From a virus, in the IMG/VR virus record IMGVR_UViG_3300011440_000005, positions 1-53,348 of that record: a stretch of 53,348 bases of DNA; one strand, written 5' to 3'. This document shows positions 3,745 through 51,624 of the stretch, piece after piece. Every line of letters starts with the position of its first letter. Within the stretch, counting starts at the first letter, position 1. The position numbers were made by a program, and so were the translations under genes. The notes beneath the pieces were generated by a model. It did not search any database. It was given only the letters and a program-made list of their open reading frames with translations, and was not told the origin of the DNA.

Positions 3745-6700
3745 TGGACCCGGAAGAGCTTGGCGCAGGCATTCCGTCTGACCTTCCGATAGAGGAAGAG
3801 CCAGAGCAGGAACCAGGTTTGGTCCAGGAGGGTGGCGGGCTTCTCGACACCTTCCAGAACGAAGGGATCATGGCGGGTCTCGGCCAGACGGCTGAGATGT
3901 TCACCCCGCAGACGATCACCCAGCCTGGCACTGTCGGCCTCGACACCGTCTTCAACGACTTCGTCAACTTCTCCGTCGTTGGTGACATCTTCGACGTGCG
4001 GGCTGGCCTCGACCCGAACAGCGGTCTCGACCCTCTGGAGCGTGGACTGTCGTTGCTGCCCTTGGTCACTCCCTTGGCGGGTGGTGCCCTGGTGGCCGGT
4101 CACCTCGCCAAGGCTCGCACCGCTCGCTTGAACGCAGCACAAACCCAGACGGCTCTCCGGGGCATCGAGTCGATGGCTACCCCCGAAGGCTTCGGGCCTC
4201 TACCTGACCAGTTGCCGGACACTCCAGTAGACCAGTATGATGCACCTACACGTAGGAGGGTGGCTGCAATCCTGGAGCAGAAAGCGTTCGTCAGCGAACA
4301 AGCCTGGGCTGAGCGCTACCTGGAAGCCGACGATTTTGGCGAGTTGTCGGAACTGGTCACCTCCACTCGCAACCCTGTCGCTGAAGCTCACCTGCGCCTG
4401 ATCGGCACGAAACTGATCGAGTCCAACCCGGACCTGTACATGCAGGTCAACCCGGAGGACGGTCAGTTGTTCACGCCGGAAGAGCAGGCGCTGGTGGCAG
4501 CGAAGATGGCGATGACCCGTTATGAGGCAGCCATCCAGCAGGGCATCCTCCACGAGCTTGACGCTGCGGGCAATCTGAACGCCACGAGTTTTAGCTCCGC
4601 TAGCAAGGCATTGCGGGAAGCTCGACAGTCGGAATTTGACACCGCTTCGTGGATAGACGAGGTGGTGGCTTTGGAGCAGAAAGCAGCCAAGGTCACGGTT
4701 GGCCCCAACTGGATACCCACCCCGCAGTCCTCGACACGGTTGGTGTGGTTGGAGCGCAAGAACCCCAACGACTTCGCTGGGACCCCCCGCATGCTGCTTG
4801 GCATCGACCTGTTGCCTACGGAGCGCCTGTACAACCCGGACACTGGGGCGGTTTCGATCAAAGCTTTTCAGAAGCGTTTCAGCAGGATCGCCCCGGATGC
4901 TTTGCAGTCTGACATGGCAGCGAACCTCGCCCAGGGTTATCTGCGTGCTGACCAGATGCCGGGCAACGTCATTCAGGCTGGCTCCACTTGGTACAAGCGA
5001 GCCAACCGCACCGCCGAGGTTCTTTCCAGAGCGACAGGGTTTAAACAACAGCGTGTCACTGGTCTGATGTCGGCTCTCTCCCCTCAAACCAGATGGTCGC
5101 CTGACAATCTGATTGCCTCGATTCACCTCATCCTTCGTTACAAGTCGCAGGACTTGGACCCCTATTCGGCTGAGTACAGGGCCGTGGTCCGTGAGGCGAT
5201 AGAGGCTGGCGGGTGGGTTCACGACCTGCGTGACACAATGCGCAAAGACCAGCGGGCGATGACCGATGAGCAGATCATCGAGTTCTGGTCTGACCCCGCC
5301 AACATCATGGGCACCGGAGGCCAGGTTCGGGCCATGGAGATGAGGGACAAGCAGATCGCTGCGGCTTTGATGCTTTTCTCTGATGTGCCCTGGCAGGTGA
5401 TCCTGCGTCACACGAAGACCCACACGTTCGGTGCGCTTATGAACGACCCTTCGTTGCGAGAGTCCTCGGTCATTGACGCTCACTCGTGGCGTGCCTCTCT
5501 CGGGTCTTACCTTGTCGGTGATCCTATCTCGTCTGGCGCTACACGCAACCTCAAAGCGGGAGACACCTACGAGTTTGAGGTTTCCGGCGAGCAGATCACC
5601 GATGAGGAAATAGCGACTACTCGTGCCGAGTTGGAGCGCATCGGTGCCCCGGAACTGATTAGCCGCTACACCAATGTCCCTGGTCTCAAAGAACAGCGCC
5701 TGTATGAGGTGATAGAGGCAGCCCACCGCACCGTTCGGGACGTTTTCGCTGTGGACCAGGCCCATCAAGCGCAAGCGGTGGTCTGGACGGAACAGCAGAA
5801 ACGCTCCAAGAAGGTCGTGGACCAGATCAAAGCCATTCGTCGTCGCCTCAGGCACCAGGAGCCGGGGCCTCGGGATGCTGCGGACCTTCAGCGCCTGCTG
5901 CGTGCCCTGACTGTCGACAGCACCGTCCTCGGACACGCCGAAGGCAACCCACAACAGTTGGGCAGCTTCGTTGCTTGGACAGCGAACGCTTCGGAGAACC
6001 TCGACGTCACTCCCGGCCCTGCCGTCATGAGGACAGTAGGAACCAAGTCGCCCATCCTCGTCGAGCCTCTTGATGATGGCGTGGCCGTCTACGGCAAAGA
6101 CGACCCCGAGGTCTACGAAGCTCTTCGGCATCTTCGTCCTGCCCCTGTCGAGGCTGGCTCCGTTTACAGCCGGTTTGTTCCTCGCCGTGTCCAAGTTGTT
6201 GAAGACGTTGACCGTGTCGCCAAGCGGGTGTCCACCCAGCAAGACAACAATGGGTTGCCACTCTCCACGGAGACCCGCACCTGGATGGGTGACCCGGTGC
6301 AGTATGTGGGCACCCGGGCGGGCAACTTCATGGTGTTTGAAGTGGACCCTGCCGCTGCCCAGGAGCTTCGCTCGGAGATTCAGGGTCTTCCTTGGGCTTT
6401 CGATGTCATCGAGCAGCCGGTGTCCGTGGCCCGTGGTGGCGCAGGCCAGGGAGCCTGGGATGTCGCTGCTCTCGACGATGTCGACTGGCACGAGCCTGCC
6501 CGCAACCCCCTGACCCGTACTTCGTGGGTTGCCATGACCGCCTACAAGGGCGATTTGTCTGCTGCAGACAACTCCCGTCGCCAGGCAGAACTGCGGAAGG
6601 CTGTGAAGAGGTCGGGCGGGACTGTGGTGGAAACCGAGGGTATCTACGGTGGCGAAGTCGAGCCGTCGCTCTTCATCACAGGTCTCTCCTATTCCAAGGC

Positions 6701-8507
6701 TGTGGCTTTGGCGAAGAAGTTTGACCAGGAGAGTATCGCCACCCCCCAAGGGTTGCTCTTCTCAGATGGCACCTACGCTCCCTCTGACGGTGACCCCAGC
6801 TTCACCCCTGGTGACGGTGACCGCACCGCTTTCGCTGACGGTCGGGCTTTCTCCTGGGATTACGGCGACGACCCGTTCGACCCCCTCAACCGGGAGATGC
6901 TGCCCGAGAACCCCGATGACCTGATGGGTTTCCCGGAGCAGGGTCCAGCCACGGCTCTCGTGGTGGACCTGGGTCCGAACGGGACACCCTGGGTGGAAAC
7001 CGATCGCCTGTGGAAGCTGGCTTCCCAGCACCGTGGTACCAAGTCGTCTGCTGCTTACGTCCACGGTGCCCTGTATCAGCCTGCGGGCACTGAGGCCACC
7101 TATGAGCATTCCTACTCGGACACTGCCGGTCGGGTTACCACCATCCGCACCAGGGAGAATGTGGCTGGGGAGTCGTCCAACCAGACGAAGGTTTATATCC
7201 CTTCCCGTGAGGCTGCTGGCCTGTCCACGAAAGGCAACCGGCATGTCGCCCCTAAGCGCACCAAGAGCGAGGTGTGGCCGCTGGTGGAAACCGCCGAGAG
7301 CGGCAACGCCCTGATGATCCCCGACGAGGTGATCGTCCGTTACCCGGAGCCTCCGAAGGTGCGTCGTAACGGCACCCTTCTCACCGGTCGAGCACCTCGC
7401 ACCATTACCACAGCCTCCGTGGACTTGACTGGTCCTGTGCCGGTGATCGAGATGGGCGAGGCTGTGTTCACTGATGGCATAGCTCGCATCACTATCTCCG
7501 ACGAGAAGGTGAAGATCGACGCCACCAATCCCAACGACGCTCTGAAGGTGCATGACCTGATGAACCGCATTGGTATGGGGGTGCGTGGCAGGGCGAACAT
7601 CGGGGAACCTTCCATAGCTTTCGGGTTCAAAGAGGGGACGATGGCGACACCTGGTCGCAGGTCGATGGGTACCGTGTTCCCTGGAGACATTGAGGTGATG
7701 CCCCGGGACGCCGCTCTCAGTCAGAAAGCGGGCGTTAGCGTGACGTTGGGGCGTAATTTTAGCGACACTCAGGCCAACCTGGTCGCAGAGACCGTACAGC
7801 GCCTTCTAAGCGGTTCTTATCCTTCGGGTCGTCCGGTGCCACCTCGTACGCTGGCGCAGCTAGAACACGGCATTATGGGGGTCTCCTATGAAACGGCAGA
7901 CCTTCGGCCCAACCAGGCCACCTATGGATCGGTTCCCATCACCCGCACGAACGCCAAGGCCATCTATCTCAATGACCGTGTGGCCTACCTCGACCAGCAA
8001 CTGAAGGGTCGCCTCAGCGACATTCGCCGCCGCTTGTACCCTGACGTCCACAGAAGGATGCGTTTGGCTGGGGTGGACTGGCTGGAACACACGGTCATCC
8101 ACGAGATGGGCCACACCATCCACGCTGCCGCTGGTGCGGACGCTCTCCCCCTCGTGCGTCGTCGTGTAGAACGTGCCATCCAAGAGTTGGGCGGAGTACC
8201 TGGTGTGCGTCACCACATCTCAGCTTATGCCGTGAAAGACGGCGTGGAGATGTTCGCTGACGCCTACGCCTTGTACACGGTCAACCCGGATGGGCTGCAC
8301 CCAGCGGCCAAGTCCATGGTGGAGGATGTCCTCGATCTGGTGGAGATGATCCCCGAGGACGGGAAGTTCGACATGGCACTGGTGCCTGATGGTATCCTTG
8401 AGAAGTTTGAGATGCTTCACAAGACGGAGCATTTCCCGACCGCCCCTACACCTTTCGACTACGGAGGCGCCCCTATACCTTTCGACTACGGAGGCACCTA
8501 TGGATGA
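3744..8507 (+). CDS. Very large multidomain virion-associated protein (MuF-like position) with C-terminal HExxH zincin-type metallopeptidase motif
   Basis: 1587-aa uninterrupted ORF after the portal; HEMGH at 8100-8114 followed by ...GVEMFADAYALY; tandem PFDYGG at the C-terminus. Confidence 0.8.
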   Translation: MDPEELGAGIPSDLPIEEEPEQEPGLVQEGGGLLDTFQNEGIMAGLGQTAEMFTPQTITQPGTVGLDTVFNDFVNFSVVGDIFDVRAGLDPNSGLDPLERGLSLLPLVTPLAGGALVAGHLAKARTARLNAAQTQTALRGIESMATPEGFGPLPDQLPDTPVDQYDAPTRRRVAAILEQKAFVSEQAWAERYLEADDFGELSELVTSTRNPVAEAHLRLIGTKLIESNPDLYMQVNPEDGQLFTPEEQALVAAKMAMTRYEAAIQQGILHELDAAGNLNATSFSSASKALREARQSEFDTASWIDEVVALEQKAAKVTVGPNWIPTPQSSTRLVWLERKNPNDFAGTPRMLLGIDLLPTERLYNPDTGAVSIKAFQKRFSRIAPDALQSDMAANLAQGYLRADQMPGNVIQAGSTWYKRANRTAEVLSRATGFKQQRVTGLMSALSPQTRWSPDNLIASIHLILRYKSQDLDPYSAEYRAVVREAIEAGGWVHDLRDTMRKDQRAMTDEQIIEFWSDPANIMGTGGQVRAMEMRDKQIAAALMLFSDVPWQVILRHTKTHTFGALMNDPSLRESSVIDAHSWRASLGSYLVGDPISSGATRNLKAGDTYEFEVSGEQITDEEIATTRAELERIGAPELISRYTNVPGLKEQRLYEVIEAAHRTVRDVFAVDQAHQAQAVVWTEQQKRSKKVVDQIKAIRRRLRHQEPGPRDAADLQRLLRALTVDSTVLGHAEGNPQQLGSFVAWTANASENLDVTPGPAVMRTVGTKSPILVEPLDDGVAVYGKDDPEVYEALRHLRPAPVEAGSVYSRFVPRRVQVVEDVDRVAKRVSTQQDNNGLPLSTETRTWMGDPVQYVGTRAGNFMVFEVDPAAAQELRSEIQGLPWAFDVIEQPVSVARGGAGQGAWDVAALDDVDWHEPARNPLTRTSWVAMTAYKGDLSAADNSRRQAELRKAVKRSGGTVVETEGIYGGEVEPSLFITGLSYSKAVALAKKFDQESIATPQGLLFSDGTYAPSDGDPSFTPGDGDRTAFADGRAFSWDYGDDPFDPLNREMLPENPDDLMGFPEQGPATALVVDLGPNGTPWVETDRLWKLASQHRGTKSSAAYVHGALYQPAGTEATYEHSYSDTAGRVTTIRTRENVAGESSNQTKVYIPSREAAGLSTKGNRHVAPKRTKSEVWPLVETAESGNALMIPDEVIVRYPEPPKVRRNGTLLTGRAPRTITTASVDLTGPVPVIEMGEAVFTDGIARITISDEKVKIDATNPNDALKVHDLMNRIGMGVRGRANIGEPSIAFGFKEGTMATPGRRSMGTVFPGDIEVMPRDAALSQKAGVSVTLGRNFSDTQANLVAETVQRLLSGSYPSGRPVPPRTLAQLEHGIMGVSYETADLRPNQATYGSVPITRTNAKAIYLNDRVAYLDQQLKGRLSDIRRRLYPDVHRRMRLAGVDWLEHTVIHEMGHTIHAAAGADALPLVRRRVERAIQELGGVPGVRHHISAYAVKDGVEMFADAYALYTVNPDGLHPAAKSMVEDVLDLVEMIPEDGKFDMALVPDGILEKFEMLHKTEHFPTAPTPFDYGGAPIPFDYGGTYG

Positions 8508-8832
8508 ACTTCTCCCCCCGCTCTGCACTTTGTGCGAATACCTTGACCCGAGTGGGGCGAAGAAGTGCGTGGCGTTCCCTGAGGGGATACCGCCTGAGGT
8601 GTGGTCCAATCAGCATCCCCACTTCACCCCCTACCAGGGCGAGCGTGTTGTGTTTAAACGAGCAAGTGACGTGGAGCCGGATCAGGTGGCAGCTTGGCAA
8701 GAGTTGCATGCTGAGTTGCAGGTAGCTGGTGTGGCCCCGGGTCTTCCCCAGGAGATGCAGGACGACTTATACTCCGACGATGACGGCGAGAGTCCACCTG
8801 AAGAAGCAAGTTCGCCGCAGCCGAGTTATTGA
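8500..8832 (+). CDS. Hypothetical Cys-containing protein (CTLC ... C, AFPEGIPPEV)
   Basis: ATG at 8500 overlaps the stop of the 1587-aa ORF (ATGGATGA); 110 aa. Confidence 0.6.
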   Translation: MDELLPPLCTLCEYLDPSGAKKCVAFPEGIPPEVWSNQHPHFTPYQGERVVFKRASDVEPDQVAAWQELHAELQVAGVAPGLPQEMQDDLYSDDDGESPPEEASSPQPSY

Positions 8833-15164: not shown

Positions 15165-17036
15165 ATGGCTGATCCATACTCCGACGCTGGTCGGGAACTC
15201 CGGGACTGGTTGCTCAACTGGGTTCGTCCCTATGTAAACAACGACCAGATGTCTGAGTTGGAAGGGTTGAATGACCCTAACCAGATTCTGACTTCTGCCG
15301 CAGCTTATGGTGCTCCGGTCCATGACCTTCCTTCTCTGGTTGCGGGTGACAGAAGTGCGGCGAAAGCAGGAAAGCCAAGACCCCCAGGAGCCGACCCTGA
15401 GGCCCCTGTCGATTTGGAGTCACAGCTTGGATGGGCCGACGAGGAACTATATGGCCCCGGACCCTCTGGGGGAACCCCTAGCGTAGACGCTGACCGCTTG
15501 GACGCCATTTCCGCTGAGGGTGCTGGCATTCAGAATGCTACTGGTTCTTTGTCGCCGGACGATTTGGCGATCATTCGGAAGTCTGTCGTTGACTATAACG
15601 CTCTCTCCGCCGAAGAGGCCGCTCGGCTCAGCACCATTCAGCAGGAGGAGCCTCAAGATTTCGCTTTGGCGACCACTCAAGTCCAAGCTGAGATTGATGC
15701 GGGGATTCGCACCCAGGATATGCTGGAGAAGTCCTCCTGGATTTACTCCGAAGCGGGTGGCGTCGTCGGCACGGTCTCCAGCGCCAGGGAAGACCTCCTG
15801 GAAATATACGACGTTGCTCTCGACCTTGACCTGGGCACGCAGTTGGACGCTCTGCTCATGGACACTGAAGCTGAGGCAGGCGAAACAGAAGAGGATCGCC
15901 GCATCCGTGTGGTCACTGAGATGCTTCAGAACGGGAACACCCCGGAGAACCAGTTCATCCTGTCGTCCACGTTCTCCGCTGACAACCGGTGGCGTCCCAC
16001 TGTTACCATTGACGGGGTTTCCAACACGGTCATACAGCAGCTAATGCCGGTGGCTGGTGACGGTTCCACGGCCTTACTCATCGCCAAAGCAGCGATGACA
16101 CAGGACATTGATCCTGTTGCTTTCGGTCACGCCTGGTCTGGTTTCAAAGAGCGCATGACCGACTCCAGCTACTTGGGTGCTGCGGTTAGGGACATCGAAG
16201 AGACCGCTACGACTCCCGCTAATGCTGGCGCTGCTGAGCAGATAGCACGAGCCACATACGCCTCCCGTAAGAAGTCGCCCTACACGGGCGTGGGACGTCT
16301 GGCTCGTGAGTACCGGATGGCTCTCGACAAGTACGGTGACTCCCATTTGCTCGCCCAGGTGGCTGTGCAGGCACCCAACCTGGCTGAGAAGATGTACCTC
16401 GACCCCTGGTCGCTGTCCCGTGCGGAGCTTGAACGGGTGGTAGACCTGGTGGGCGGGTTGGAGAACCCGGACGGCACGCCACGAGGTGACCTTGCCACCG
16501 GTCAGACCGACTGGATGGCGATGCGGCTCTCCGGTGTGGGTGAGACCCGGGCCGTGGACACCATGACCGCTAACGAGGCGGCCCGCACCCTCGCCCAGTC
16601 GTGGGGCCTGCCGGTGGACGACGCCACCCTCAACACTATCGCTTCAGGTTTCAGCGGCCAGCTTGCCTCCACCTTCAGGGAGACCCTTGGTAACCCGTTT
16701 AAACCAGAGCAGCTTGGTGGGGAGCTAACCGTCGAGGACATTCCCACGTCACCGACAGCGTGGGCGGCTAACGCCCTTCGACAGTTGCCCGCCTACCAGC
16801 GGCTCTACCGGGGGAAGACCACCCAGGAGTCGGAAGAGCAGTACTACGGGCGCTTCGCTTCCAAGGCCCAGTCGGTGTTGGGGGATGAGAACCCTGAGGT
16901 GATTCAGGCTGCGATGTCTGAGGGTGACACGGGTGAGGTTGCCCGCTACGCCCTGTCCTCAGGGATCGGGTGGAAGTCCAGCACGTTCCAGCAGCGTGCC
17001 GCTTCCATCGCTGAGATGTTCCGCACGATGACATGA
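15165..17036 (+). CDS. Large hypothetical structural protein (623 aa)
   Basis: ORF with GGGAGG RBS 8 nt upstream; stop overlaps the next start (ATGA). Confidence 0.85.
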   Translation: MADPYSDAGRELRDWLLNWVRPYVNNDQMSELEGLNDPNQILTSAAAYGAPVHDLPSLVAGDRSAAKAGKPRPPGADPEAPVDLESQLGWADEELYGPGPSGGTPSVDADRLDAISAEGAGIQNATGSLSPDDLAIIRKSVVDYNALSAEEAARLSTIQQEEPQDFALATTQVQAEIDAGIRTQDMLEKSSWIYSEAGGVVGTVSSAREDLLEIYDVALDLDLGTQLDALLMDTEAEAGETEEDRRIRVVTEMLQNGNTPENQFILSSTFSADNRWRPTVTIDGVSNTVIQQLMPVAGDGSTALLIAKAAMTQDIDPVAFGHAWSGFKERMTDSSYLGAAVRDIEETATTPANAGAAEQIARATYASRKKSPYTGVGRLAREYRMALDKYGDSHLLAQVAVQAPNLAEKMYLDPWSLSRAELERVVDLVGGLENPDGTPRGDLATGQTDWMAMRLSGVGETRAVDTMTANEAARTLAQSWGLPVDDATLNTIASGFSGQLASTFRETLGNPFKPEQLGGELTVEDIPTSPTAWAANALRQLPAYQRLYRGKTTQESEEQYYGRFASKAQSVLGDENPEVIQAAMSEGDTGEVARYALSSGIGWKSSTFQQRAASIAEMFRTMT

Positions 17037-18766: not shown

Positions 18767-19977
18767 TGGCTTTGGTCAACGTCAACTCAGGCAACGAGGA
18801 AGGAATGCCCTCCGGTGGTTCGGGTGGCGGCTCGGGTGGGTCGGGTTCGCCCTCTGGTTCCGGTGGTGGGGGTGGCAAGAAAGACAAGAACCCAGCCCAG
18901 GAGGCGAGGCAGGGCGCATTCCGGGACATGATGGAGTTCAACCCTTGGCTGAAGATGCTTGGCCTTGGCTCGTTCATCCGCCAGTTGATACGGGACGGGG
19001 CACCTGGGTCGGAGATTCTCCAGGCGGTCAGGCAGACCAACCAGTACAAGCGTATGTTCCCCGGGATTGTTCGTGCGGACGGTACCCGCCCGTGGACGGA
19101 GTCGGAGTACCTCGCCCGGACTGAGGACTACCGCAATGTGCTACGGCAGTTCGGTATGTGGAAAGCCTCGCAGGATTCCCCAATGGATTACGTGTCCTTC
19201 TTCGATCTTGGGGTGGACCCCAACGAGTTGCAGGAGCGCCTGGTCCGCTACCGCACTTTGCAGCGTTCCAGCCAGGCGACGAAGGATGCCTTCTTCGTGT
19301 ACGCAGGGATGGACGTCGACGACGACACCTTGTACAAGGCGATGGTGAACCCGACGTTCCGTCAGGCTCTCCAGTTGCAGTACAACGAGCGTGTCGCTGG
19401 TGGCGAGTTCACCTACAACAAGTTCATCCGTAGAGCCACCCAGCAGGGCTTGAAGCGGGTGGCGAAACTGCTCAAAGATATGCAGACCCAGGGCCTGGTC
19501 ACCGGTCAGGTCATCTCCAAGTTGATGACCGTCGATCCTGATTTCGCTCAGAAGATCATGGGTTCCCTCTTCCAGGGTGGGCAGAAGCACGCTGGCCGCA
19601 TGCTCGACCTGGACGAGTTGATGTCCAGCTTCGACTTCGCCATCCTCGGTAGTGCCGCTCGGGAGGCAGGGCTGGAGTTGCCCACTAAGCAGCGCATCCA
19701 GGCGCTGGTGCAGTCGGGCATCAGCCGTGCCCAGGCTGCTCGTTCGTGGGCGCAGTTCTCATCTACCAGAGGACTGTTGCAGGGTGCTGCGCAGCGTGCT
19801 GGTTTGGATGGGTTCTCCCAGGACTTGTGGGAAGAGGCCACATTGCTGGCCCGTGGTGACGCTGTTACCAAGCTGAACCGTGTGATCGGCGGGGAGAATG
19901 CTCTCGGCCAAGAGGGCACAGGGTTCGCTTCTGACCTTGAGGGTGGACGCATCACACAGCGTGGTAGGGCGCTCTGA
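18766..19977 (+). CDS. Hypothetical structural protein with Gly/Ser-rich N-terminus (403 aa)
   Basis: TGATG overlap with the upstream ORF; last gene before a regulatory gap. Confidence 0.8.
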   Translation: MALVNVNSGNEEGMPSGGSGGGSGGSGSPSGSGGGGGKKDKNPAQEARQGAFRDMMEFNPWLKMLGLGSFIRQLIRDGAPGSEILQAVRQTNQYKRMFPGIVRADGTRPWTESEYLARTEDYRNVLRQFGMWKASQDSPMDYVSFFDLGVDPNELQERLVRYRTLQRSSQATKDAFFVYAGMDVDDDTLYKAMVNPTFRQALQLQYNERVAGGEFTYNKFIRRATQQGLKRVAKLLKDMQTQGLVTGQVISKLMTVDPDFAQKIMGSLFQGGQKHAGRMLDLDELMSSFDFAILGSAAREAGLELPTKQRIQALVQSGISRAQAARSWAQFSSTRGLLQGAAQRAGLDGFSQDLWEEATLLARGDAVTKLNRVIGGENALGQEGTGFASDLEGGRITQRGRAL

Positions 19978-35856: not shown

Positions 35857-35857
35857 T

Positions 35858-36391: not shown

Positions 36392-36528
36392 CGCTTGCAA
36401 TCCTCGGGGTTCAAGTGGAGAAAGCTCCACTCCTGGTTCAGCATCCCCTCAATGTCCAGCCAGTTACTTTCCACCATTACAAGGCTGGCATCAGTGGCGA
36501 AACGACCGCAGTTATCACAACGGTTCAT
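36388..36528 (-). CDS. 46-aa micro-protein (MNRCDNCGRF...)
   Basis: Not in the track; ATGA overlaps at both ends (with 36525 and 36391). Confidence 0.4.
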   Translation of the reverse strand: MNRCDNCGRFATDASLVMVESNWLDIEGMLNQEWSFLHLNPEDCKR

Positions 36529-37697
36529 CCGACCAGCTTCTCCGTTGTAGGGTTCCAACGAACCAGGTTGACTTGGAAGTCGTCACCCCTGTGGGTGACG
36601 TAAGCGAAGCCGGGTTGCCAGTCGGGGTTCTTCGCATAACCCAGGCCGTAAGGATCAGAGAGGACACCGGTCTCGACACCCGTATAGACGATCAACTCGG
36701 GGCGATCTTTGGGCCGTGGCACCCACCGACTCAGATGAGTGAGAGCCAGACGATGGGTGTGACCCATGGCGACCGAAGCGTTGACCCGTTCTATCTCCGC
36801 CCGGACTGAAGCTCCAGCGCCGGTCCTAACCTTGTCACCGTGGGTGGCGTAGAAGCCGGGGGCGATGTCCACCTCGGGGTACGGGTAGTCACCGAGAGGG
36901 CTGTTCGCATACTCGATCCCCAGGCCGTCGAACCTGAGCAGGTTCGAGATGGACAGCAAACGGGGAGCGTTCAAAGGCAAGCCGCCTTGCCTCAGGTTGA
37001 ATAGCTCGGGAGCAATACGAAGCAGGTACTCCTGTAAGCGGTGGTCGTGGTTCCCCGGGAGATAAGTCATGGGTGGGTACCCCGCAGCCTCCAGGCGCTC
37101 CACCAGCACCCGGTACATGACGTCGACACCCTGCTGGAGGGTCGCCATCCACTCGGGATGCTTCGGTGTGTACTTGGAGACCGAGTCGAAGTCACACCCG
37201 TCGCCCATGTAAATGATCCGGTCGGGCTGGGTGTCTTTCAGCCAGGCGAGCAGCGCCTCGTGGAGTCGCCAGTTGACGAACGGAGCCTGGTCGTCACCGA
37301 TAAGGACAGTGATGCCGCCAGTACGGTCCCAGGCTTTGTTGGGGGCGCTCCTGGTGCCAGTTCTTTGGCGTGCTGGCATCCCGCCGATCAGTGTCTCAAA
37401 GCGGCCCCAGGCTGTGTCCTCGGGGGGAACCACAGGCACGAGGTGAGCTTTGGTCTGATGAAGCATGGTGGGAGCCTCATCACCGTTGGGAGCCTGCCAC
37501 TGGTTGACCGTGAGAGACACGACCTGCCACTCTGCGGGGTCGTAGCCTCGCTCCAGGAGCATGAGGCCAACGGTACGAAGGTCGTCATCCTCGGTCGCTT
37601 CCCCTTCGACGGGGGGCATGGTAACGCTGACGTTTAAACCGTCCACTTTGACCGCTGGTTTCAGGGGTTTCGTATCCGAAGGTGGTCGCCTCACCAC
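36525..37697 (-). CDS. Calcineurin-like metallophosphoesterase
   Basis: VLIGDDQAP, YMGDGCDF, LPGNHDHR, ATHGDK, MGHTHR motifs in the canonical order. Confidence 0.85.
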   Translation of the reverse strand: MVRRPPSDTKPLKPAVKVDGLNVSVTMPPVEGEATEDDDLRTVGLMLLERGYDPAEWQVVSLTVNQWQAPNGDEAPTMLHQTKAHLVPVVPPEDTAWGRFETLIGGMPARQRTGTRSAPNKAWDRTGGITVLIGDDQAPFVNWRLHEALLAWLKDTQPDRIIYMGDGCDFDSVSKYTPKHPEWMATLQQGVDVMYRVLVERLEAAGYPPMTYLPGNHDHRLQEYLLRIAPELFNLRQGGLPLNAPRLLSISNLLRFDGLGIEYANSPLGDYPYPEVDIAPGFYATHGDKVRTGAGASVRAEIERVNASVAMGHTHRLALTHLSRWVPRPKDRPELIVYTGVETGVLSDPYGLGYAKNPDWQPGFAYVTHRGDDFQVNLVRWNPTTEKLVG

Positions 37698-41794: not shown

Positions 41795-42601
41795 TCAACT
41801 GGCGTTGAGAGTCTGGCCGTAAGGACATTCTTGGTAGAAGTCGCAGTAGGTCTCTGAGCAGAGGTTGCTGGACGGGTTGGGCAGGAACGGCCCGTTACGT
41901 TCGATCAGGTCGGCCACCTGGATGGCCCTGACCTTGGTGAGAGCGATCTGAGGTTCAGTGCGGTGAGCGGGGATGCGGTCGAACCGGCCAGCGTGGGTCA
42001 TCACGTCGTAGACGAAGCTCACCTCATGCGTGCCGAGTATCTCCCGGTAGACGTCGAGGTACCAGGCAGCCTGGCTGGAGGCAGCAGCCGTGGATTTCTT
42101 CGCTGACCAGCGCTTGGTGCTGGTCTTGTGGTCCACGAGGTAGTACCAGCCGGTGTTTAGGTTCTGGAGCAGCAGGTCGATGGTGCCGTGACGCTTCCAC
42201 CCTTCGATCCAGTCGAGCGTGAAGGGTTGTTCCACAGCAACGACCCGGTACTCGTCGGGCCACTGGCACCCTTGGTCGAGGTACGCCAAGAGCATGCTTT
42301 CGATTAGCTCCTGAACCTCCCCGTAGGTCCAGATACGGTCGTTGACTTTCCAGTTGAACTGGTCAGTCCAGCGGAGGGTCTCGACGAAGCTCGCTGCTCC
42401 AGCAGCAAGGACATCTTCCTTGATGTACGCCAGACCGTTTAAACGACAGGTGTAGAGGTGGTCGAGTCCAGCGTGGTAGCCGGTGCCGAGGGCACGGCTC
42501 ACTCCCCCACGGTTCGGGCGATCAGGGTCGAGCGTGAACTCCAGTCGGGTCTGGCATATGTCGGCTGTGTTCAGCAGCGACTGGCGCATCAGCCGGGTCA
42601 T
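41795..42601 (-). CDS. Cas4/RecB-family PD-(D/E)xK exonuclease with Cys cluster
   Basis: N-terminal C (DICQ), D...VDHKT core, C-terminal C-x3-C-x5-C (CSETYCDFYQEC). Confidence 0.8.
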   Translation of the reverse strand: MTRLMRQSLLNTADICQTRLEFTLDPDRPNRGGVSRALGTGYHAGLDHLYTCRLNGLAYIKEDVLAAGAASFVETLRWTDQFNWKVNDRIWTYGEVQELIESMLLAYLDQGCQWPDEYRVVAVEQPFTLDWIEGWKRHGTIDLLLQNLNTGWYYLVDHKTSTKRWSAKKSTAAASSQAAWYLDVYREILGTHEVSFVYDVMTHAGRFDRIPAHRTEPQIALTKVRAIQVADLIERNGPFLPNPSSNLCSETYCDFYQECPYGQTLNAS

Positions 42602-46090: not shown

Positions 46091-46339
46091 TCACTCAAAC
46101 AAGTAGTCGAAGTCCTCGGTCATTGCGGCGATGCCGTCAATGTCGTCACCGAGTAGCTCAAACATTGCCGCACTTACTGCGGCTGCCGCCTTGTTCTCGT
46201 TCACGCTGTGGTTCTCACCGAAGACATGGCAGCCCTCGGCTGCGAAGAGCCGCTGCGCTTGTTTAAACGGCACGTCATCGACCTCGTGCAGCGAGTCCAT
46301 CTCCCAGGGTTCGCCACACTGTGGGCAGCGAATATCCAT
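46091..46339 (-). CDS. Hypothetical protein (N-terminal CPQCG)
   Basis: 82 aa with a GAAGGAGG RBS. Confidence 0.65.
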   Translation of the reverse strand: MDIRCPQCGEPWEMDSLHEVDDVPFKQAQRLFAAEGCHVFGENHSVNENKAAAAVSAAMFELLGDDIDGIAAMTEDFDYLFE

Positions 46340-46402: not shown

Positions 46403-46990
46403 TCACCCATCGATCATTTCTATGTTGTCCTGCGGGCATATCGGGTAGCCGGTGTCCAACCATTTCTGCGTGACTCGCACCGTGTACCCACACTCAACGC
46501 ACATAGCCTTCAGCAGCCGGGTGCCCTGCTTGGGTCCACTGCTACTTGAGCCGGTTTTGATTGCTGTGTGCGGATACTCACCGAGGCGCTTCAATAACGG
46601 CTGAATAGCCTTCTTGAAGTCATCACCTGCGACCGTGGCGCTTGGTTTGCCAACTAGGCCGATCGCCCTGACGCTCTTCGTGAACCCCGCCTTGTGTCCA
46701 TCCGTGGGATGAGCAACATGCACAAGCTCGTGAGCGAGGGTTGCCAGCACCTCGACCGGGTCACTCAGTACTGGACTGACGAACAAATGACTGTCTTTGC
46801 GTTCCCCTGCGGGGTGCCAGCACTCACCGATCCGACGCTGACGGGCCGACGTTGCTCCCTTGGACGGCCAACCCACGCTAACCGTCCAGGGACTAAGCAA
46901 CTTGACTCCTGCGCCCTCCAGGAAGCCCTCCAGCAGCTTCCCGGCTTTGATGAGCCACTGCTCCCGGGTTACGGGCCTAGTGGCGCTCAT
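46403..46990 (-). CDS. SprT-like zinc metalloprotease with C-terminal zinc ribbon
   Basis: LAHELVHVAH (HExxH) and CVECGYTVRV...ICPQ. Confidence 0.75.
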   Translation of the reverse strand: MSATRPVTREQWLIKAGKLLEGFLEGAGVKLLSPWTVSVGWPSKGATSARQRRIGECWHPAGERKDSHLFVSPVLSDPVEVLATLAHELVHVAHPTDGHKAGFTKSVRAIGLVGKPSATVAGDDFKKAIQPLLKRLGEYPHTAIKTGSSSSGPKQGTRLLKAMCVECGYTVRVTQKWLDTGYPICPQDNIEMIDG

Positions 46991-47214: not shown

Positions 47215-47287
47215 TCTCTGCCTCCTTCTCCAGTACTGAATGCACTGGTGGGAATGCACCGTGTTTAAACGGCACACTCCCATCAGG
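47215..47287 (-). repeat. Intergenic cassette copy 2
   Basis: Minus sense: 13-bp hairpin gggagtgtgccgt-ttaaac-acggtgcattccc (3 G.U) containing GTTTAAAC; ccagt-gcattcagt-actgg; agaaggaggcagagaATG. Confidence 0.7.
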
Positions 47288-47704
47288 TCACTCACACCAC
47301 ACCTTCTCGGTGCGCTTCTCAATGGTCGCACCAGGCCAGAACACACCATGCTCGGCCTCGACCGAACGCAAGTGTGCCAGCCACTTGTCCGCTTCCGCCT
47401 TCGTGCGGAAGTAGGCAATATGAACGGGGTAACCGAAGTTCGGCTCAGGGAAGGTTGCCTCCCACGAGGTGACCGTGATCTGTCGGTCATAACCCATTTC
47501 GCACGCCTGGCACAAATAGTCCGGTCCCGCCCAGGAGCCGATGAAGCTCCCATGACGGCAGTACTGCGAGGGGTCGTTGTGGTTGGCGTCGTAGCCAAGC
47601 TCGTCGTCTAGGTCACTGGTGGGGAACGGTGCCAGCCCGCCGTTGTCGACGGTTGGCCCGTCCTCATACCAGGACATTGGAACGTTGGTCTCTCCGTATG
47701 CCAT
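47288..47704 (-). CDS. Hypothetical protein
   Basis: ATG 47704 (MAYGETN...) after an AGGAGGAAG RBS; 138 aa. Confidence 0.65.
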   Translation of the reverse strand: MAYGETNVPMSWYEDGPTVDNGGLAPFPTSDLDDELGYDANHNDPSQYCRHGSFIGSWAGPDYLCQACEMGYDRQITVTSWEATFPEPNFGYPVHIAYFRTKAEADKWLAHLRSVEAEHGVFWPGATIEKRTEKVWCE

Positions 47705-48419: not shown

Positions 48420-48617
48420 TCAGATCGTCACGTCGAAATGGTCAATGGTCAGAACGTTGCTGTCGGGCAGCATCACTTCGTAGTAACGCTCATCAGCGGG
48501 GTAACGGCGAACCGAAACCTCAGTGCCAACAGCAAAGCTTGCACCAGTGAAATGACCAATCTCCCGGTTCAACCATGCGGTGAACCAGGGGTTGTTTGAA
48601 TCTTGGAAGTAGCTCAT
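48420..48617 (-). CDS. Hypothetical protein, first gene of the leftward block
   Basis: ATG 48617 (MSYFQDSNNPW...) after AGGAGGAAGACAA; the track start 48656 lies inside element B. Confidence 0.6.
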   Translation of the reverse strand: MSYFQDSNNPWFTAWLNREIGHFTGASFAVGTEVSVRRYPADERYYEVMLPDSNVLTIDHFDVTI

Positions 48618-48635
48618 TTGTCTTCCTCCTATCAG

Positions 48636-48723
48636 CCGGTGACGTTCACCGGTCATTGAGGGGATCAGAGCATCCAGGCTTGCCTAGGTTCCTGGTAGCT
48701 ATAGCCCGATCCCCTTAATGGCC
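48636..48723. promoter_or_regulatory. Double-hairpin element B (paralogue of 45959-46062)
   Basis: S1 ccggtga-cgt-tcaccgg; S2 cattgaggggatc ... gatccccttaatg (13 bp, one G.T); lies 19 nt from the start of 48420..48617. Confidence 0.55.
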
Positions 48724-49795
48724 CGCCAGGTTGTCCTAGCGAGCCGAAGGAAGAAAAAGAGGTTCTCACTCACCCCTGCGTGACCTGGCCGTGGTTGTCT
48801 CTCCACGGTCGCCCGCTCCCGAGGTGGTCGGGGTGGTCCTTCCGGTGCTGCGCACCTTCAGCTTTCCCCTGGCGATCGGCTGGAGAGCCGATCAACCCCC
48901 TCCGGGGTCAAGGCCAGGTTCTGAGGGCAGGAGCCACTCCCGAGGCCGGTGGTGACCTTGGCCCGAGGGCTGATCGAGTACCGGCAAGCCGGACTCTAGT
49001 CGACCAGTACGACAACGTCAAGTTCACCAGTAAACCCCAGTTCTGGCCGTTCTCGAGAAGGTTGCACAGTGCAACCAACAGGGGAACGGGCCGAACTGCC
49101 CGATAAGCCTGGCGCTTAACCCCCCGCCCCCAGTGGGTGGAGCGAAATTGAGCGCCCACTCAAACTAAGGCTGGCACCCGAAGGAGGGGCAGCACGCAGG
49201 TAGATGTCAAAGACAGCGCCACTAACAGAGGTGATGCACCAGGCACCATGCGGTGGTGATGCAGCCAACAGCCTTACAGCGTTATATAGCTCACTCGAAC
49301 AGTGTTCGATAGCTCAAATGAGTGTGATCTGCACCCACAACGAGCACGTGACCAGCCCGTCCTGCGAGTGCAACGGTCCAACCAACAACACAGCGCACAA
49401 ACACCCAGGTCAGGAGCAGAAATCAACACCAACAGCCGAAAGGCTGACCGGGGTCCATTTATTTCCCCAGCAGCAGTGTGGGGAAGGTCACTGTCACAAG
49501 TACCGGACAGTCCAGTGTCTGTTAGGGGTGCTAGTAGCCTGTTTAGTAGCTGTTTGTTGGCTTGGGCCAGGTCAACTTGGGGCTTGGTGGGGGCTTCGCC
49601 CCCTTTAGCCACCTGTTTCTTGGTGTTTGTCAGTGGTTGACTACATGTGGAGGGGGTGTCCCACCCCCGACGTGTCAGCAAACTAAGAACTAGTGCGGCT
49701 TCGCCGCCTTGCTGGACGCAAAGAACGACCCTAGGGCCGGGGGGGTATCTTTCGACTGTGCCTGGTAGGGGCTGCCAGGGCTAGACGAAACCCGG
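48724..49795. other. 1.07-kb region without credible ORFs; hairpin- and repeat-rich (candidate large ncRNA(s) and/or replication origin)
   Basis: All track ORFs here have implausible composition. Multiple 6-9-bp perfect stems, tandem repeats and an AT-rich palindrome are listed under findings. Confidence 0.6.
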
Positions 49796-50278
49796 TTAGG
49801 AAGGTAGAACCTTCTGGACTCGACGCTTCAATTCTTGTAGCTGCTCGTCAACAGTGGAGTTGACACTCGGACGGCTGTCGGTGTTGGTTACGCTCCGCCC
49901 AGCCCACGAATCTTTGTTGGTTCGTTGAAGCTGGTCGATGAGCCTGGAGGCTTCTCGCCTGGCGATGGGTATTTCCCCAGCCCAGCCAAGACCTCGTATG
50001 TAGTTCCGCTGTGCCTGGGTTGTCTCCCACCCTGGCGCTGCTGGCTTCCTAACAGGTCGGGACGAGCGGACTAGTGGTTTCTGCTCCAATGGTCGGGTGT
50101 CTGCTCCAACGAGCTTCGCCCAAGCTTCGATCCGGCTCGGGTCGTTGCGGAGTAGGCCGATGAGTTGAGTGGCCGCTCCGAGGGTGGGCGGGATTTCCGC
50201 CTCCCATCCCATTGAACGGAGAGTGTCGATCTCTCGTTGTGATGGGCCGACCTGGCCTCTCCGTCGTCTTGTGGTCAC
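49796..50278 (-). CDS. Hypothetical protein with two copies of a c. 35-aa helical repeat
   Basis: SQREIDTLRSMGWEAEIPPTLGAATQLIGLL and TQAQRNYIRGLGWAGEIPIARREASRLIDQL; GTG 50278 preferred over the Arg/Pro-rich extension to 50389. Confidence 0.55.
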   Translation of the reverse strand: MTTRRRRGQVGPSQREIDTLRSMGWEAEIPPTLGAATQLIGLLRNDPSRIEAWAKLVGADTRPLEQKPLVRSSRPVRKPAAPGWETTQAQRNYIRGLGWAGEIPIARREASRLIDQLQRTNKDSWAGRSVTNTDSRPSVNSTVDEQLQELKRRVQKVLPS

Positions 50279-50444
50279 TGTCTCTTCCTGCTGTCGTGTT
50301 CGATGGTGGAAGCCCCGCCCCCCGAGGGGGGAAGGAGGGAAAACCACCTCGGGCACCCTTGCGGGCCAGCCTGAGCGAGGCTTCCACACATACCCCCCGA
50401 GAAGTGTCCTCAGAGGGCTTGACCAAGCTAGCCGACCAGTCGAC

Positions 50445-50473: not shown

Positions 50474-50612
50474 GTGGGGGTACGCACTGACTAAGCCGTA
50501 ACAGGCAGAAAGAACGTGCCTACAGCGTCACCCGCAGGGGCGGGGGGAAGTTCTCTAGCGGAACTACCGCTTGGAACCCGCCCCGGTGGGTTTAAACGAA
50601 AGGAGTTGAGAG

Positions 50613-50843
50613 GTGGCAGTAGAGATAACAGCGGCTCCGTCACGGGAGCGTGACGTTGTTGGGGTGCTGCTGTACGACGAGCACCACGAGAATTTCAGTC
50701 TCAGCGTCAACATTTCGGTGGATGAGGCGAAAGACCTGATCTACAGGCTCGAAGTGGCCGTTCGCAAGATCGAACGCCGAGGGTCGCCGGATGAGTCCAT
50801 TTGGGGGCATCGGCATCCGAGTTACGACGAGATGGGAGGCTGA
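50613..50843 (+). CDS. Hypothetical protein
   Basis: GTG start with a GAAAGGAG RBS; 76 aa. Confidence 0.6.
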   Translation: MAVEITAAPSRERDVVGVLLYDEHHENFSLSVNISVDEAKDLIYRLEVAVRKIERRGSPDESIWGHRHPSYDEMGG

Positions 50844-50844
50844 T

Positions 50845-51350: not shown

Positions 51351-51366
51351 ACGCTTGGAGGAAGCG

Positions 51367-51624
51367 ATGAGTGACGAAGCGGTCATAAGCGCCATCGAGC
51401 AGAGCCGTAAGGTGCTGGAACAGAAGGAACTTCACACTCGTTTGTTGTTGGAGCAGCTTTATGAGCAGGCAGGGTTTATGAAGCCTCGGACGGAGAACTA
51501 CCAGTCTCTAACCGAAACGAGGCGGGCTGTCATGGAACGCTGGGCCGAACACGCCAAGCTCGCCAGAGCGGAAGGTTTAAACGCCGCAGCCAACTATTGC
51601 GAACGAAAGGCCAACGGACGATGA
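51367..51624 (+). CDS. Hypothetical protein
   Basis: ATG 51367 after GGAGGAAGCG. Confidence 0.6.
   Translation: MSDEAVISAIEQSRKVLEQKELHTRLLLEQLYEQAGFMKPRTENYQSLTETRRAVMERWAEHAKLARAEGLNAAANYCERKANGR

Follow-up and report, generated by a model that had tools for sequence, protein, structure and literature searches.

A dispersed 8-bp palindromic word in the genome of a temperate actinophage and its association with a phage-encoded SprT-like zinc metalloprotease

The stretch of DNA analyzed here, which is called the window below, is 53,348 nucleotides long and is the complete circular genome (53,225 bp) of a temperate actinophage. The feature under study is the 8-bp word GTTTAAAC, whose exact copies, counted as strings, number 11 across the 53 kb and lie in both operons, with all 11 being found where the first-pass annotation had placed them. 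As independent assemblies of the same phage (L001 and L003) carry the same sites, an assembly artefact is ruled out. Megablast of 25 kb of the window against the GenBank phages gave no close relative, and Rfam gave no family anywhere in the window.

Nine of the 11 sites are intragenic, with five being read as Phe-Lys and four as Leu-Asn, and the other two are intergenic. The coding sites use both of the allowed frames, with the rare codons TTT, AAA and TTA. Of the sites in plus-strand genes, site 1 (5039–5046, Phe-Lys) lies in the gene of a 1587-aa polyvalent virion protein (3744–8507), site 2 (8652–8659, Leu-Asn) in a 73-aa gene (8504–8725), site 3 (16697–16704, Phe-Lys) in the gene at 15165–17036, site 4 (27293–27300, Phe-Lys) in an 867-aa gene (25392–27995), and site 11 (51575–51582, Leu-Asn) near the 3' end of the gene at 51355–51624, with 15 nt between it and the point where the next gene starts. 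Of those in minus-strand genes, site 5 (33935–33942, Phe-Lys) occupies about codons 7–9 of the tyrosine integrase gene (33057–33962), site 6 (37632–37639, Leu-Asn) is at about codon 20 of a 390-aa metallophosphoesterase-like gene (36525–37697), and site 7 (42437–42444, Leu-Asn) is in the gene of a PD-(D/E)XK (Cas4/RecB-like) nuclease (41795–42601). Site 8 (46261–46268) is in the gene of an 82-aa Cys/His-rich protein (46091–46339, minus strand), 134 bp downstream of the gene of a 195-aa SprT-like zinc metalloprotease (46403–46990, minus strand), which is considered in detail below. The intergenic site 9 (47263–47270) is located, in the minus sense, upstream of a DUF7417 gene and of the SprT-like gene, the reading frames of which overlap by 4 bases. 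Finally, site 10 (50590–50597) belongs to the 5' leader of the late operon, which runs rightward; a GC-rich stem-loop precedes it and the RBS of the gene at 50613–50843 follows it.

The enrichment of the word is extreme and is independent of codon usage and protein sequence. Depending on the control (dinucleotide, Markov, codon-shuffle or synonymous resampling), only 0.08–0.23 copies are expected versus the 11 seen. With the dinucleotide-shuffled window the mean is 0.23 and the maximum 3; with codons shuffled inside genes 0.09 copies are expected versus the nine coding copies; and with synonymous resampling, where the proteins are held fixed, 0.18 copies are expected, with a maximum of 2 in 2000 trials. 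Among the 8-mers of the window GTTTAAAC ranks first in over-representation for Markov orders 1–4. The sequence specificity is also strict. The core TTTAAA occurs 15 times in the window, with 14 occurrences being GTTTAAA, 12 being TTTAAAC and 11 being the full word, while the number of one-mismatch neighbours of GTTTAAAC is at the chance level (8 observed versus about 7.4 expected). The flank-extended forms CGTTTAAAC and GTTTAAACG occur three and eight times, respectively, with one copy having both extensions, so that 10 of the 11 copies are extended by one flanking base, and the conservation ends at this flanking C or G. The site is thus an 8-bp palindrome and has no orientation. The near-miss at 1164–1171 (GTTTAAAG, with the TTTAAA core intact) and the similar ones at 24851 (CTTTAAAC), 34992 (GTTTAAAG) and 39666 (GTTTAAAT) may be weak or decayed sites. 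The over-representation, the one-base extension, the existence of near-misses and the split of the coding copies into Phe-Lys and Leu-Asn had all been described in the first-pass annotation and are confirmed here, with the over-representation standing under the codon-preserving and Markov controls.

Two further claims of that annotation, that the copy at 47263 forms the loop of an intergenic hairpin and that the copy at 50590 sits between a structured leader and the RBS of the first rightward gene, are borne out by the folding calculations. Site 9 is at the apex of a hairpin (47245–47288, minus strand) whose stem is 14 bp long and, on the transcribed strand, includes three G-U pairs; no U-tract follows it, and the sense-strand RNA has a folding energy of −33.9 kcal/mol with z = −6.6. 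The leader structure at site 10 has z = −2.3. It might then be argued that the word acts as a signal on the RNA, or via RNA polymerase with a phage factor, for which a promoter element, a consensus of leaders or RBS spacers, a site of RNA processing and a −1 frameshift heptamer (U_UUA_AAC) come into question. The position of site 10 just upstream of the RBS and the hairpin of site 9, which is stronger on the transcribed strand, are in line with this, and in two phages discussed below (L244 and, at some sites, Streptomyces phage Intolerant) the word fills the spacer between the RBS and the start codon, implying that part of the signal there could be a translation-initiation consensus. TTTAAAC is, moreover, a classic slippery heptamer. 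However, nine of the 11 sites are intragenic, with no fixed distance from the starts; an RNA signal does not require palindromy, with only 1 in 256 8-mers being palindromic; and the link to the SprT-like gene, as presented below, would be left unexplained. The −1 programmed frameshifting in particular is rejected on the reading frames, because the required Leu-Asn frame is present in only four of the nine coding sites, the other five being Phe-Lys, and because two sites are intergenic. A signal of this kind is therefore considered to be improbable. Note also that a promoter and terminator consensus scan of 45.5–52.3 kb gave nothing at the sites, that a repeat search of the gene-free stretch of 48.5–50.7 kb gave only short weak repeats, and that the idea of extended inverted repeats shared by the sites in general is rejected, since among 22 sites of four genomes only about 6 have strong hairpins.

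We now consider the relatives of the phage. In the closest whole-genome relative all four TTTAAA are GTTTAAAC, which is the top 8-mer of that genome, and the same holds for five of five TTTAAA in L230 and two of two in L235. By contrast, GTTTAAAC is nearly absent from the other relatives, which make up about 1 Mb at 57–66% GC and have five TTTAAA in total. An avoidance of TTTAAA throughout the group was considered and rejected, since the low-order composition itself predicts 4–8 occurrences. Phage Immanuel3, which has a similar genome layout and no SprT-like gene, has zero copies.

The first-pass annotation took the positional conservation in relatives as one of the tests of the sites. Site for site, no conservation of positions is seen between the window and the closest relative, and the sites turn over. 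What is kept is the word and its enrichment, together with the regions where it recurs, which are the 5' end of the integrase gene, the neighbourhood of the SprT-like gene, and the Cas4-like and polyvalent-protein genes. For example, the integrase of the closest relative, being 40% identical to that of the window, carries a separate site, placed about 11 codons deeper in the gene and in the other frame; the homologue of the PD-(D/E)XK nuclease gene in L230 also has a site, at a codon different from that of site 7; L235 has a site in a small gene at the same gene-order position as the gene of site 2; and in the closest relative and L230 comparable motif-centred hairpins adjoin the SprT-like gene, with different stem sequences. 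In the terminase gene, the site GGTTTAAACGC (Pro-Gly-Leu-Asn) has persisted in at least six relatives (the closest one, L123, L125, L132, L230 and L235) while the neighbouring synonymous positions differ, and on this comparison it is under purifying selection. Positional conservation is thus too strict a test for these sites.

When gene co-occurrence was scored in the motif-bearing genomes wherever the region concerned is covered, the SprT-like gene was found to be present in the closest relative and L230 and to be absent from all of more than 200 motif-free loci. The integrase, HTH, sigma-r4-like, dNMP kinase, primase, helicase and Cas4-like genes were rejected as correlates of the motif, all of them being present also in motif-free relatives. 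It is noted that the SprT-like gene was not among the candidates that the first-pass annotation had named.

The 195-aa protein is composed of an N-terminal minimal zincin domain, with H87-E88-x-x-H91 and H99, and a C-terminal Cys-rich zinc-ribbon-like domain (about residues 150–195), with K-Q-G-T-R ... C-x-x-C-G-Y-T-V-R-V-T-Q-K-W ... C-P. Residues H87, E88, H91 and H99 are invariant in alignments of 9 and 41 sequences. The protein matches phrog_6361 (E = 4e-40), a family with no assigned function, and its homologues in GenBank phages are annotated as 'SprT-like protease', while Pfam PF10263 is not reached by the window protein and is matched only faintly or weakly by some homologues. The AF2 model has high confidence (pLDDT 91.8), and its top Foldseek match is abylysin (4jiu, E = 2.9e-3, probability 1.0), giving the N-terminal domain as a minimal zincin; the second match, CapP, is weak. 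Searching the PDB sequences with an HMM of the alignment gave only chance-level matches.

With homologues of this protein, the comparison can be carried to unrelated phages, for which we used a panel of about 15 genomes picked by homology. The 195-aa protein is the only window protein having homologues throughout this panel. GTTTAAAC occurs 7 times in Enterobacter phage Arya (1.0 expected), 4 times in Pseudomonas phage Persinger (0.10 expected), 12 times in L243 (0.08 expected), 4 times in L249 (0.002 expected) and, with weak enrichment, twice in L248 (0.30 expected). In three other phages a one-base variant, GTTTACAC, is enriched instead, with 17 copies in Arthrobacter phage Emotion (0.12 expected), 17 in Microbacterium phage Caron (0.03 expected) and 37 in Streptomyces phage Intolerant (0.04 expected). 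The same word or its one-base variant is thus enriched in at least five independent phage lineages with the canonical form of the gene, and the consensus across the homologue-bearing phages is C-GTTTA[A/C]AC-G. It is important to note that GTTTACAC is asymmetric by one base and hence not palindromic, so that the palindromy of GTTTAAAC may be incidental. In Intolerant, where nearly all genes share one strand, GTTTACAC nevertheless points one way in 17 copies and the opposite way in 20.

Moreover, a copy is located within 40 bp of the SprT-like gene in the closest relative, L230, Arya, Persinger, Emotion, Caron, Intolerant and L244, and within the gene in L249, while from the site densities the chance of such a nearby copy is about 0.01–0.08 per genome. 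The motif also varies with the C-terminal domain. The homologue of L244 has T-N and I-L-Y in place of T-R and T-V-R of the others (in the window protein, the Arg of T-R is R158 and T-V-R is 170–172), and the enriched word in that phage is ATTTAAAT (13 copies versus 0.8 expected). The Dismas homologue has a divergent C-terminus, and in that phage the motif is absent and CTATATAG occurs four times instead; Bordetella phage CN1 has a homologue with no zinc-ribbon domain and has no motif. From these alignments, an altered or missing C-terminal domain goes with a changed or absent motif. Three cases count against the link, namely L245, which has a near-canonical homologue yet only one site in 20.6 kb, L248 with its weak enrichment, and L243, which has no site near its SprT-like gene.

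Based on these data, we propose that the eleven (C)GTTTAAAC(G) words are selected double-stranded DNA recognition sites for the phage's own SprT-like protein, a reading to which we assign a probability of about 0.6. As the word or its variant is enriched where an SprT-like gene with the particular zinc-ribbon tail is present, the sites are probably landing pads of that protein; the link between protein and motif, resting on genome comparison, is a correlative one. The C-terminal domain, with the conserved segments K-Q-x-T-R and G-Y-x-V-R-x-T-x-K-W, would read the word, and the predicted preferred target of the 195-aa protein or of this domain is CGTTTAAACG. The sites would position the protease at set points along both operons, these being the leader of the late operon, the position beside its own gene, the start of the integrase gene and the interior of many other genes. 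Two roles then seem most likely. The first one is regulation, where the protein would regulate its own gene and exert operator- or roadblock-type control of transcription and lysogeny. The other is that the protease would cleave DNA-bound proteins or clear them from the phage genome, with a repressor, host silencers and defence proteins as possible targets.

With this proposal, the suggestion in the first-pass annotation of dispersed, stoperator-like sites for a phage DNA-binding protein stands in its core, for which the comparative support is the best, while the stoperator analogy is only a loose one. As in the Cluster A mycobacteriophages, where the stoperators are read by an L5 gp71-type repressor, there are many dispersed copies on both arms, in and between genes, with some at promoters or leaders and with one phage-encoded protein as the reader, which here is a proposed one. 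However, the stoperators are asymmetric, 13–14 bp long and oriented with transcription, whereas the window site is an exact 8–10-bp palindrome (asymmetric by one base in other phages) lying within genes in 9 of 11 cases; and they are read by an HTH repressor, whereas the present motif is associated with a zinc metalloprotease that has a zinc ribbon. Among the window proteins scanned, none was recognised as a CI- or gp71-like repressor. The CIRs of Streptomyces phage phiC31 are another example of palindromic sites scattered over the genome of a temperate actinophage and bound by a phage regulator; they are 17 bp long, lie mostly between genes in the early region and are bound by a conventional repressor.

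It might be that the sites are read by a different phage protein (the small HTH, sigma-r4-like or WhiB protein, the 82-aa Cys/His protein or an untraceable small protein) or by a host protein, with the SprT-like protease being co-inherited because this reader is its target, as would be the case for an anti-repressor protease. In ImmA/ImmR, IrrE/DdrO and CapP/CapH, a zinc metalloprotease of a mobile element or defence system cleaves a DNA-bound repressor and thereby controls expression. The likeness lies in the zinc metalloprotease; in those systems a separate HTH protein binds DNA and the sites are at one promoter, whereas here the protease has its own putative reader and the sites are genome-wide. 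Such a reading would be consistent with the weak Foldseek match to CapP, with the overlap of the variant motif with promoter-like sequences in Emotion and Caron, which is operator-like, with the cluster AZ and EH descriptions naming no repressor, and with the conservation of a sigma-like HTH protein beside the SprT-like gene in AZ phages. The 82-aa neighbour, too, is common to the window and its closest relative, and a small, fast-evolving partner that BLAST cannot trace could be the real reader. However, the small HTH, sigma-r4-like and WhiB proteins, which the first-pass annotation had proposed as readers, are poor candidates, having homologues in about 25, about 26 and 3 motif-free relatives, respectively. 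In addition, the SprT-like protein is the sole one detectably common to the panel, the motif shifts with its C-terminal domain, and a host reader would have to span Actinobacteria and Proteobacteria and yet matter only for phages with the SprT-like gene. We thus regard another reader as rather unlikely.

A further alternative is a restriction-modification-like, nicking or epigenetic system, with the sites being targets of methylation, nicking or programmed cutting, for instance in replication or packaging; the first-pass annotation had also suggested nicking, modification or packaging-related sites. An exact 8-bp palindrome with strict specificity is typical of type IIP enzymes, and some sites are in hairpin loops, as rolling-circle nicking sites are. 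However, a scan of about 30 proteins with Pfam/PHROGs and the precomputed Pfam calls for 30–51 kb, which together cover part of the small ORFs, gave neither a methyltransferase nor a restriction-type nuclease; the only nuclease near a site is the Cas4-like one, the gene of which is also in motif-free relatives; the equivalent motif GTTTACAC of related systems is not palindromic; and phages normally avoid restriction sites, which are here enriched. Such a system is considered to be very improbable. GTTTAAAC is identical to the site of PmeI / MssI, but as the word is enriched here and no gene for the cognate enzyme was found, the resemblance is probably coincidental.

A host-driven genome signature, with a temperate phage drifting toward a word-rich host, has a precedent in HIP1 (GCGATCGC) of cyanobacteria, an exact, hyper-abundant 8-bp palindrome that is over-represented in coding and non-coding DNA through DNA-level selection (PMC5861425), and the present phage, having an integrase, is temperate. 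However, HIP1 is a property of the host genome, where it occurs about once per gene and where its reader is not known, whereas the present word is specific to phages with one particular gene. Relatives of similar GC from similar samples have no such word, and the word is also enriched in phages of Enterobacter and Pseudomonas and in unrelated actinophages, with the SprT-like gene being all that they have in common. We hold this explanation to be extremely improbable. As to the host, ARAGORN gave no tRNA or attP clue, and scanning a genome collection with the helicase yielded two contigs, one from an Acidimicrobiaceae MAG and one from Gordonia, both having no motif.

Returning to the SprT-like protein as the reader, its architecture resembles that of the DNA-dependent metalloproteases SprT, Spartan and Wss1, which have an HExxH minimal zincin followed by a small zinc-binding, DNA-binding module. 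A point against the present reading is that, to our knowledge, the characterised zinc-binding domains of SprT and Spartan bind DNA by structure (ssDNA or junctions) with no sequence specificity, and we know of no genome-wide recognition word reported for a member. A pairing of this kind is found in ArdC, a protein of mobile elements in which a metalloprotease domain is combined with DNA binding (PMC7213743). In the published literature that was searched, the motif is undescribed, and so is GTTTACAC in AZ or EH phages.

It is possible, and we propose it tentatively, that there is a widespread, undescribed class of phage SprT-like zinc metalloproteases with a zinc ribbon that reads C-GTTTA[A/C]AC-G, including re-targeted variants such as that for ATTTAAAT, with the code scattered in 4 to about 40 copies per genome and the phages being those of both Actinobacteria and Proteobacteria. 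At these sites the protease would be tethered to the phage DNA or activated there, leading to the cleavage of bound proteins or to the control of transcription. If true, such proteases might provide the regulation or immunity that is missing from the descriptions of the Arthrobacter AZ and Microbacterium EH clusters, or they might form a new anti-defence device.

If the link between gene and motif is real, the 'SprT-like protease' of many actinophage records gains a testable property, namely a recognition word repeated in its own genome, and gene and motif together give a simple predictor that can be read from sequence. It would be a sequence-addressed protease, of which we found no earlier description, and a candidate for the regulatory system of temperate Arthrobacter and Microbacterium phages. 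The link would also account for the 50- to 1000-fold enrichment of an AT-rich rare-cutter site in GC-rich phages, which comes at the price of rare codons and amino-acid changes. Moreover, the apparent re-targeting by Arg-to-Asn and Arg-to-Tyr changes, with the flanks shifting from G...C to A...T, suggests that the specificity could be engineered.

Finally, we note that a Chi-like recombination hotspot was also considered and rejected, because the word is palindromic, with no orientation bias, and is absent from related phages lacking the SprT-like gene. Arya does have a genuine enrichment of Chi, as a separate word.

All 11 exact copies of the 8-base palindrome GTTTAAAC that the first-pass annotation had located in the window (starting at 5039, 8652, 16697, 27293, 33935, 37632, 42437, 46261, 47263, 50590 and 51575) are found on recounting and, as it had also noted, 10 of the 11 extend to CGTTTAAAC or GTTTAAACG. 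The over-representation holds against shuffled controls, with the dinucleotide-preserving shuffles (n = 100) giving a mean of 0.23 and a maximum of 3 copies versus the 11 observed, and when all 8-mers of the window are ranked under Markov models of order 1 to 4, GTTTAAAC is the top over-represented one. The core TTTAAA occurs 15 times, being 14 times GTTTAAA, 12 times TTTAAAC and 11 times the full GTTTAAAC, and the specificity for GTTTAAAC is sharp because its one-mismatch neighbours as a class are only at the chance level (8 observed versus about 7.4 expected). Nine sites are inside genes on both strands, where they are read, as had been described, as Phe-Lys (five) or Leu-Asn (four), the only two frames without a TAA stop, with the use of rare codons (TTT, 15% of Phe; AAA, 25% of Lys; TTA, 2% of Leu). 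Codon shuffling within the genes gives 0.09 copies, and synonymous codons re-drawn with the proteins fixed give 0.18 (maximum 2 in 2000 trials for each), and therefore the sites are not explained by protein sequence or codon usage. We consider it very likely that the enrichment is real and is selected at the DNA level.

The relatives studied here are loci fetched around homologues of the helicase and of the terminase. In about 1 Mb of them, with 57-66% GC, there are 5 TTTAAA in total, which matches the 4-8 expected from Markov models of order 2-4, so that TTTAAA is just rare there and a special avoidance of it in this phage group is excluded. In the closest whole-genome relative, IMGVR_UViG_3300037722_000278 (called rel; 49,173 bp rebuilt from four loci), which is collinear with the window at protein identities of 40-65%, all four TTTAAA are GTTTAAAC, which is again the top 8-mer, and the same identity is seen for 5 of 5 in L230 (21.9 kb) and 2 of 2 in L235 (13.6 kb), two further motif-bearing relatives. 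Between the window and rel, the sites are not conserved at homologous nucleotides, and it is the neighbourhoods that recur. For example, the integrase genes of the two (40% identical) each have one site in the first 60 bp, differing in codon and in frame; a site is present 15-18 bp downstream of the gene of a SprT-like protein in rel and L230, the nearest ones in the window being 134 bp downstream (46261) and 273 bp upstream; and the Cas4-like gene, the polyvalent-protein gene and the small gene after the latter carry sites repeatedly. Moreover, the terminase site GGTTTAAACGC (Pro-Gly-Leu-Asn) is kept in rel, L123, L125, L132, L230 and L235 with the surrounding synonymous positions varying, where the family consensus is Leu-Gly and the window has Ile-Gly and no site. 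The terminase site shows the pattern that would be expected of a selected DNA word with turnover of its copies. It is noted that another relative, the TARA contig L012, has no GTTTAAAC and contains 13 GATTGACA and 15 AGGAGGAA in 17.5 kb, which are probably a repeated early promoter and RBS consensus.

Every window protein was then compared with all fetched loci, the motif-bearing side being counted over the genomes where the relevant region is covered (the window, rel and L230). The sole gene that tracks the word is that at 46403-46990 (minus strand), encoding the 195-aa SprT-like protein, which is present in these three and absent from all of the more than 200 motif-free loci. The integrase, dNMP kinase, primase, helicase and Cas4-like nuclease are rejected as correlates, all being found in motif-free relatives. 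The small HTH protein and the sigma-r4-like protein, which had been suggested for binding assays, are also present in motif-free relatives and are poor candidates for the reader. The earlier proposal of dispersed sites for a phage DNA-binding protein gains comparative support, with the tracked protein being the SprT-like one in place of those two. This protein has an H-E-L-V-H motif, a further His downstream and a Cys-rich C-terminal segment, and matches phrog_6361 with E = 4e-40; its AF2 model is confident (pLDDT 91.8) and has as best structural match the minimal zincin abylysin (4jiu), the match that the cluster AZ preprint also gives for the homologous 'SprT-like protease' in these Arthrobacter phages. 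Note also that a second palindrome, CAGTACTG, occurs at 39559, 46766, 47231 and 47559 (4 copies versus 0.76 expected), three of them less than 800 bp apart, around the SprT-like gene and upstream of it, and one at a distance of 24 bp from the GTTTAAAC hairpin at 47263; the palindrome is absent in rel.

Homologues of the SprT-like protein are present in 164 GenBank phage records (tblastn) and in many more metagenomic ones (protein search), and for a fetched panel of these genomes all 8-mers were ranked per genome. GTTTAAAC has 7 copies in Enterobacter phage Arya (1.0 expected; second only to Chi), 4 in Pseudomonas phage Persinger (0.10), and 12, 4 and 2 in the metagenomic L243 (0.08), L249 (0.002) and L248 (0.30, a weak case). 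The one-base variant GTTTACAC leads the 8-mer ranking by a wide margin in Arthrobacter phage Emotion (17 copies, 0.12 expected), Microbacterium phage Caron (17, 0.03) and Streptomyces phage Intolerant (37, 0.04), and has the flanked form C-GTTTACAC-G, paralleling the C or G flanks of the window sites. These cases amount to at least five independent lineages (the window's clade; AZ/EH; Intolerant; Arya/Persinger; L243 and L249), and the SprT-like protein alone among the window proteins has homologues across the whole panel. Streptomyces phage Immanuel3, with a similar genome layout and without the SprT-like gene, has no GTTTAAAC, no GTTTACAC and no TTTAAA. Separately from the GTTTAAAC enrichment, E. 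coli Chi, GCTGGTGG, is the most enriched 8-mer of Arya (26 copies on both strands versus 6.4 expected).

Two further features point to the SprT-like protein itself as the candidate reader. Firstly, a motif copy is within 40 bp of its gene in rel, L230, Arya, Persinger, Emotion, Caron, Intolerant and L244, and inside it in L249, where the chance of a copy so near is about 0.01-0.08 per genome from the site densities. Arya and Persinger have their copy 18-20 bp before the start codon, a placement that would suit an autoregulated gene, and in the window site 47263 precedes the DUF7417 and SprT-like genes, which overlap each other. Secondly, the C-terminal K-Q-x-T-R ... C-x-x-C-G-Y-x-V-R-x-T-x-K-W is kept in all carriers of GTTTA[A/C]AC, whereas in the L244 protein (P0180) T-N and I-L-Y replace T-R and T-V-R and the enriched palindrome is ATTTAAAT (13 copies versus 0.8 expected), with two arginines gone where the flanking G and C turn to A and T. 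Microbacterium phage Dismas, with a divergent C-terminus, has no motif and has another AT-rich palindrome, CTATATAG, four times (about 0 expected); Bordetella phage CN1 has the protease domain with an unrelated C-terminus and no motif. L245 (K-Q-V-G-R-N), with a single motif copy, is counted as an unexplained exception. On these well-supported comparative grounds, the SprT-like protein is probably the reader of the word, with a probability of about 0.6. Since the pairing of gene and word recurs in phages of two bacterial phyla, the finding is of more interest than could be seen from the window sequence alone.

The word looks like a protein-binding one, placed preferentially though not exclusively at gene boundaries and control regions. 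Intergenic sites are 2 of 11 in the window and 13 of 38 in Intolerant, a genome with 8% non-coding DNA, where the coding copies use stop-free frames only and the rarest codons and short inter-site gaps are scarce; in L243, 8 of 12 are outside called genes. GTTTACAC directly follows promoter-like -10 hexamers in Emotion and is within promoter spacers in Caron, and in Intolerant (GTTTACAC) and L244 (ATTTAAAT) several copies occupy the stretch from the RBS to the start codon. Emotion has repeated promoter-like units TTGCGTGAAACGC-N-TAGACT-GTTTACAC (19705-19760, 20067-20122; 35753-37520), two copies being identical over at least 68 bp; these units are possibly the 'repeat sequences (data not shown)' of the cluster AZ preprint. 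In four genomes of the window's clade, 6 of 22 sites are at the apex of strong hairpins with stems differing in sequence, and the hairpin previously noticed at 47263 indeed has a folding energy of -33.9 kcal/mol (z = -6.6) on the transcribed strand, with three G-U pairs and no U-tract. This placement fits regulation (autoregulation, operator or roadblock), and it fits a tethering code for the protease too, and we do not rank the two.

The nearest functional analogy is the stoperators of Cluster A mycobacteriophages, followed by the phiC31 CIR sites, although both the site type and the protein type differ here. The SprT-like protein is similar to the protease domains of SprT/Spartan/Wss1 and ArdC, with a looser similarity to the proteases that pair with ImmR, DdrO and CapH; to our knowledge, none of these carries a sequence reader of its own or has a word spread over a genome. 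Among over-represented 8-bp palindromes the best known is HIP1, which belongs to host genomes and has no known reader. GTTTAAAC is identical to the PmeI site, apparently by coincidence. The gene, or the absence of a repressor, is covered in the cluster AZ preprint and the Microbacterium phage paper, neither of which describes the motif, and no published description of it was found in the literature searched.

The window is a temperate phage of an actinobacterial host. Since bases 1-123 are identical to 53226-53348, it represents a complete genome, 53,225 bp long, that was assembled as a circle. The ORF list does not contain the large terminase gene because this gene crosses the junction (about 52243 to 928). 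Among the products encoded by the phage are a tyrosine integrase, WhiB, a DnaB-type helicase, a DnaG-type primase, a dNMP kinase, a Cas4-like nuclease, the portal, the major capsid protein and two virion proteins of very large size. From a control region near 50.4-50.6 kb, an early operon runs leftward (about 50389 to 32481) and a late operon runs rightward (50613, via the junction, to about 32480). No close relative was found among GenBank phages; the portal shares 25% identity with the portals of Streptomyces phages, for example Immanuel3. Near-identical copies from other samples (L001, L003) have the same GTTTAAAC sites; L001 is without 195 bp (51625-51819), most of gene 51597-51821, and its identity is 95.6% over the first part of the terminase gene (52017-53348) and above 99% elsewhere. 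In the otherwise tightly packed genome, the public gene caller gives no gene for about 1.2 kb (48617-49796), where there are weak repeats only, no Rfam family and a single sigma-70-like promoter match (49021-48993, minus strand). The 1587-aa virion-associated polyvalent protein (3744-8507; homologues of 1557-1802 aa in relatives) has DUF7178 and a segment resembling DUF3293/SAM lyase, and may be injected to counter restriction. A 41-codon ORF that was not called (33959-34084, minus strand) contains two CxxC pairs, and its end overlaps the start of the integrase gene as ATGA, which suggests translational coupling; this ATGA arrangement is shared by rel. Finally, an intergenic element of about 25 nt, TGAGGACACT-N3-5-CGGGGGGTATG, has three copies (20054-20080, 29322-29348 and, on the minus strand, 50380-50411) that terminate at or near a start codon, one before the first leftward gene, like the start-associated sequences described for some actinophage clusters.
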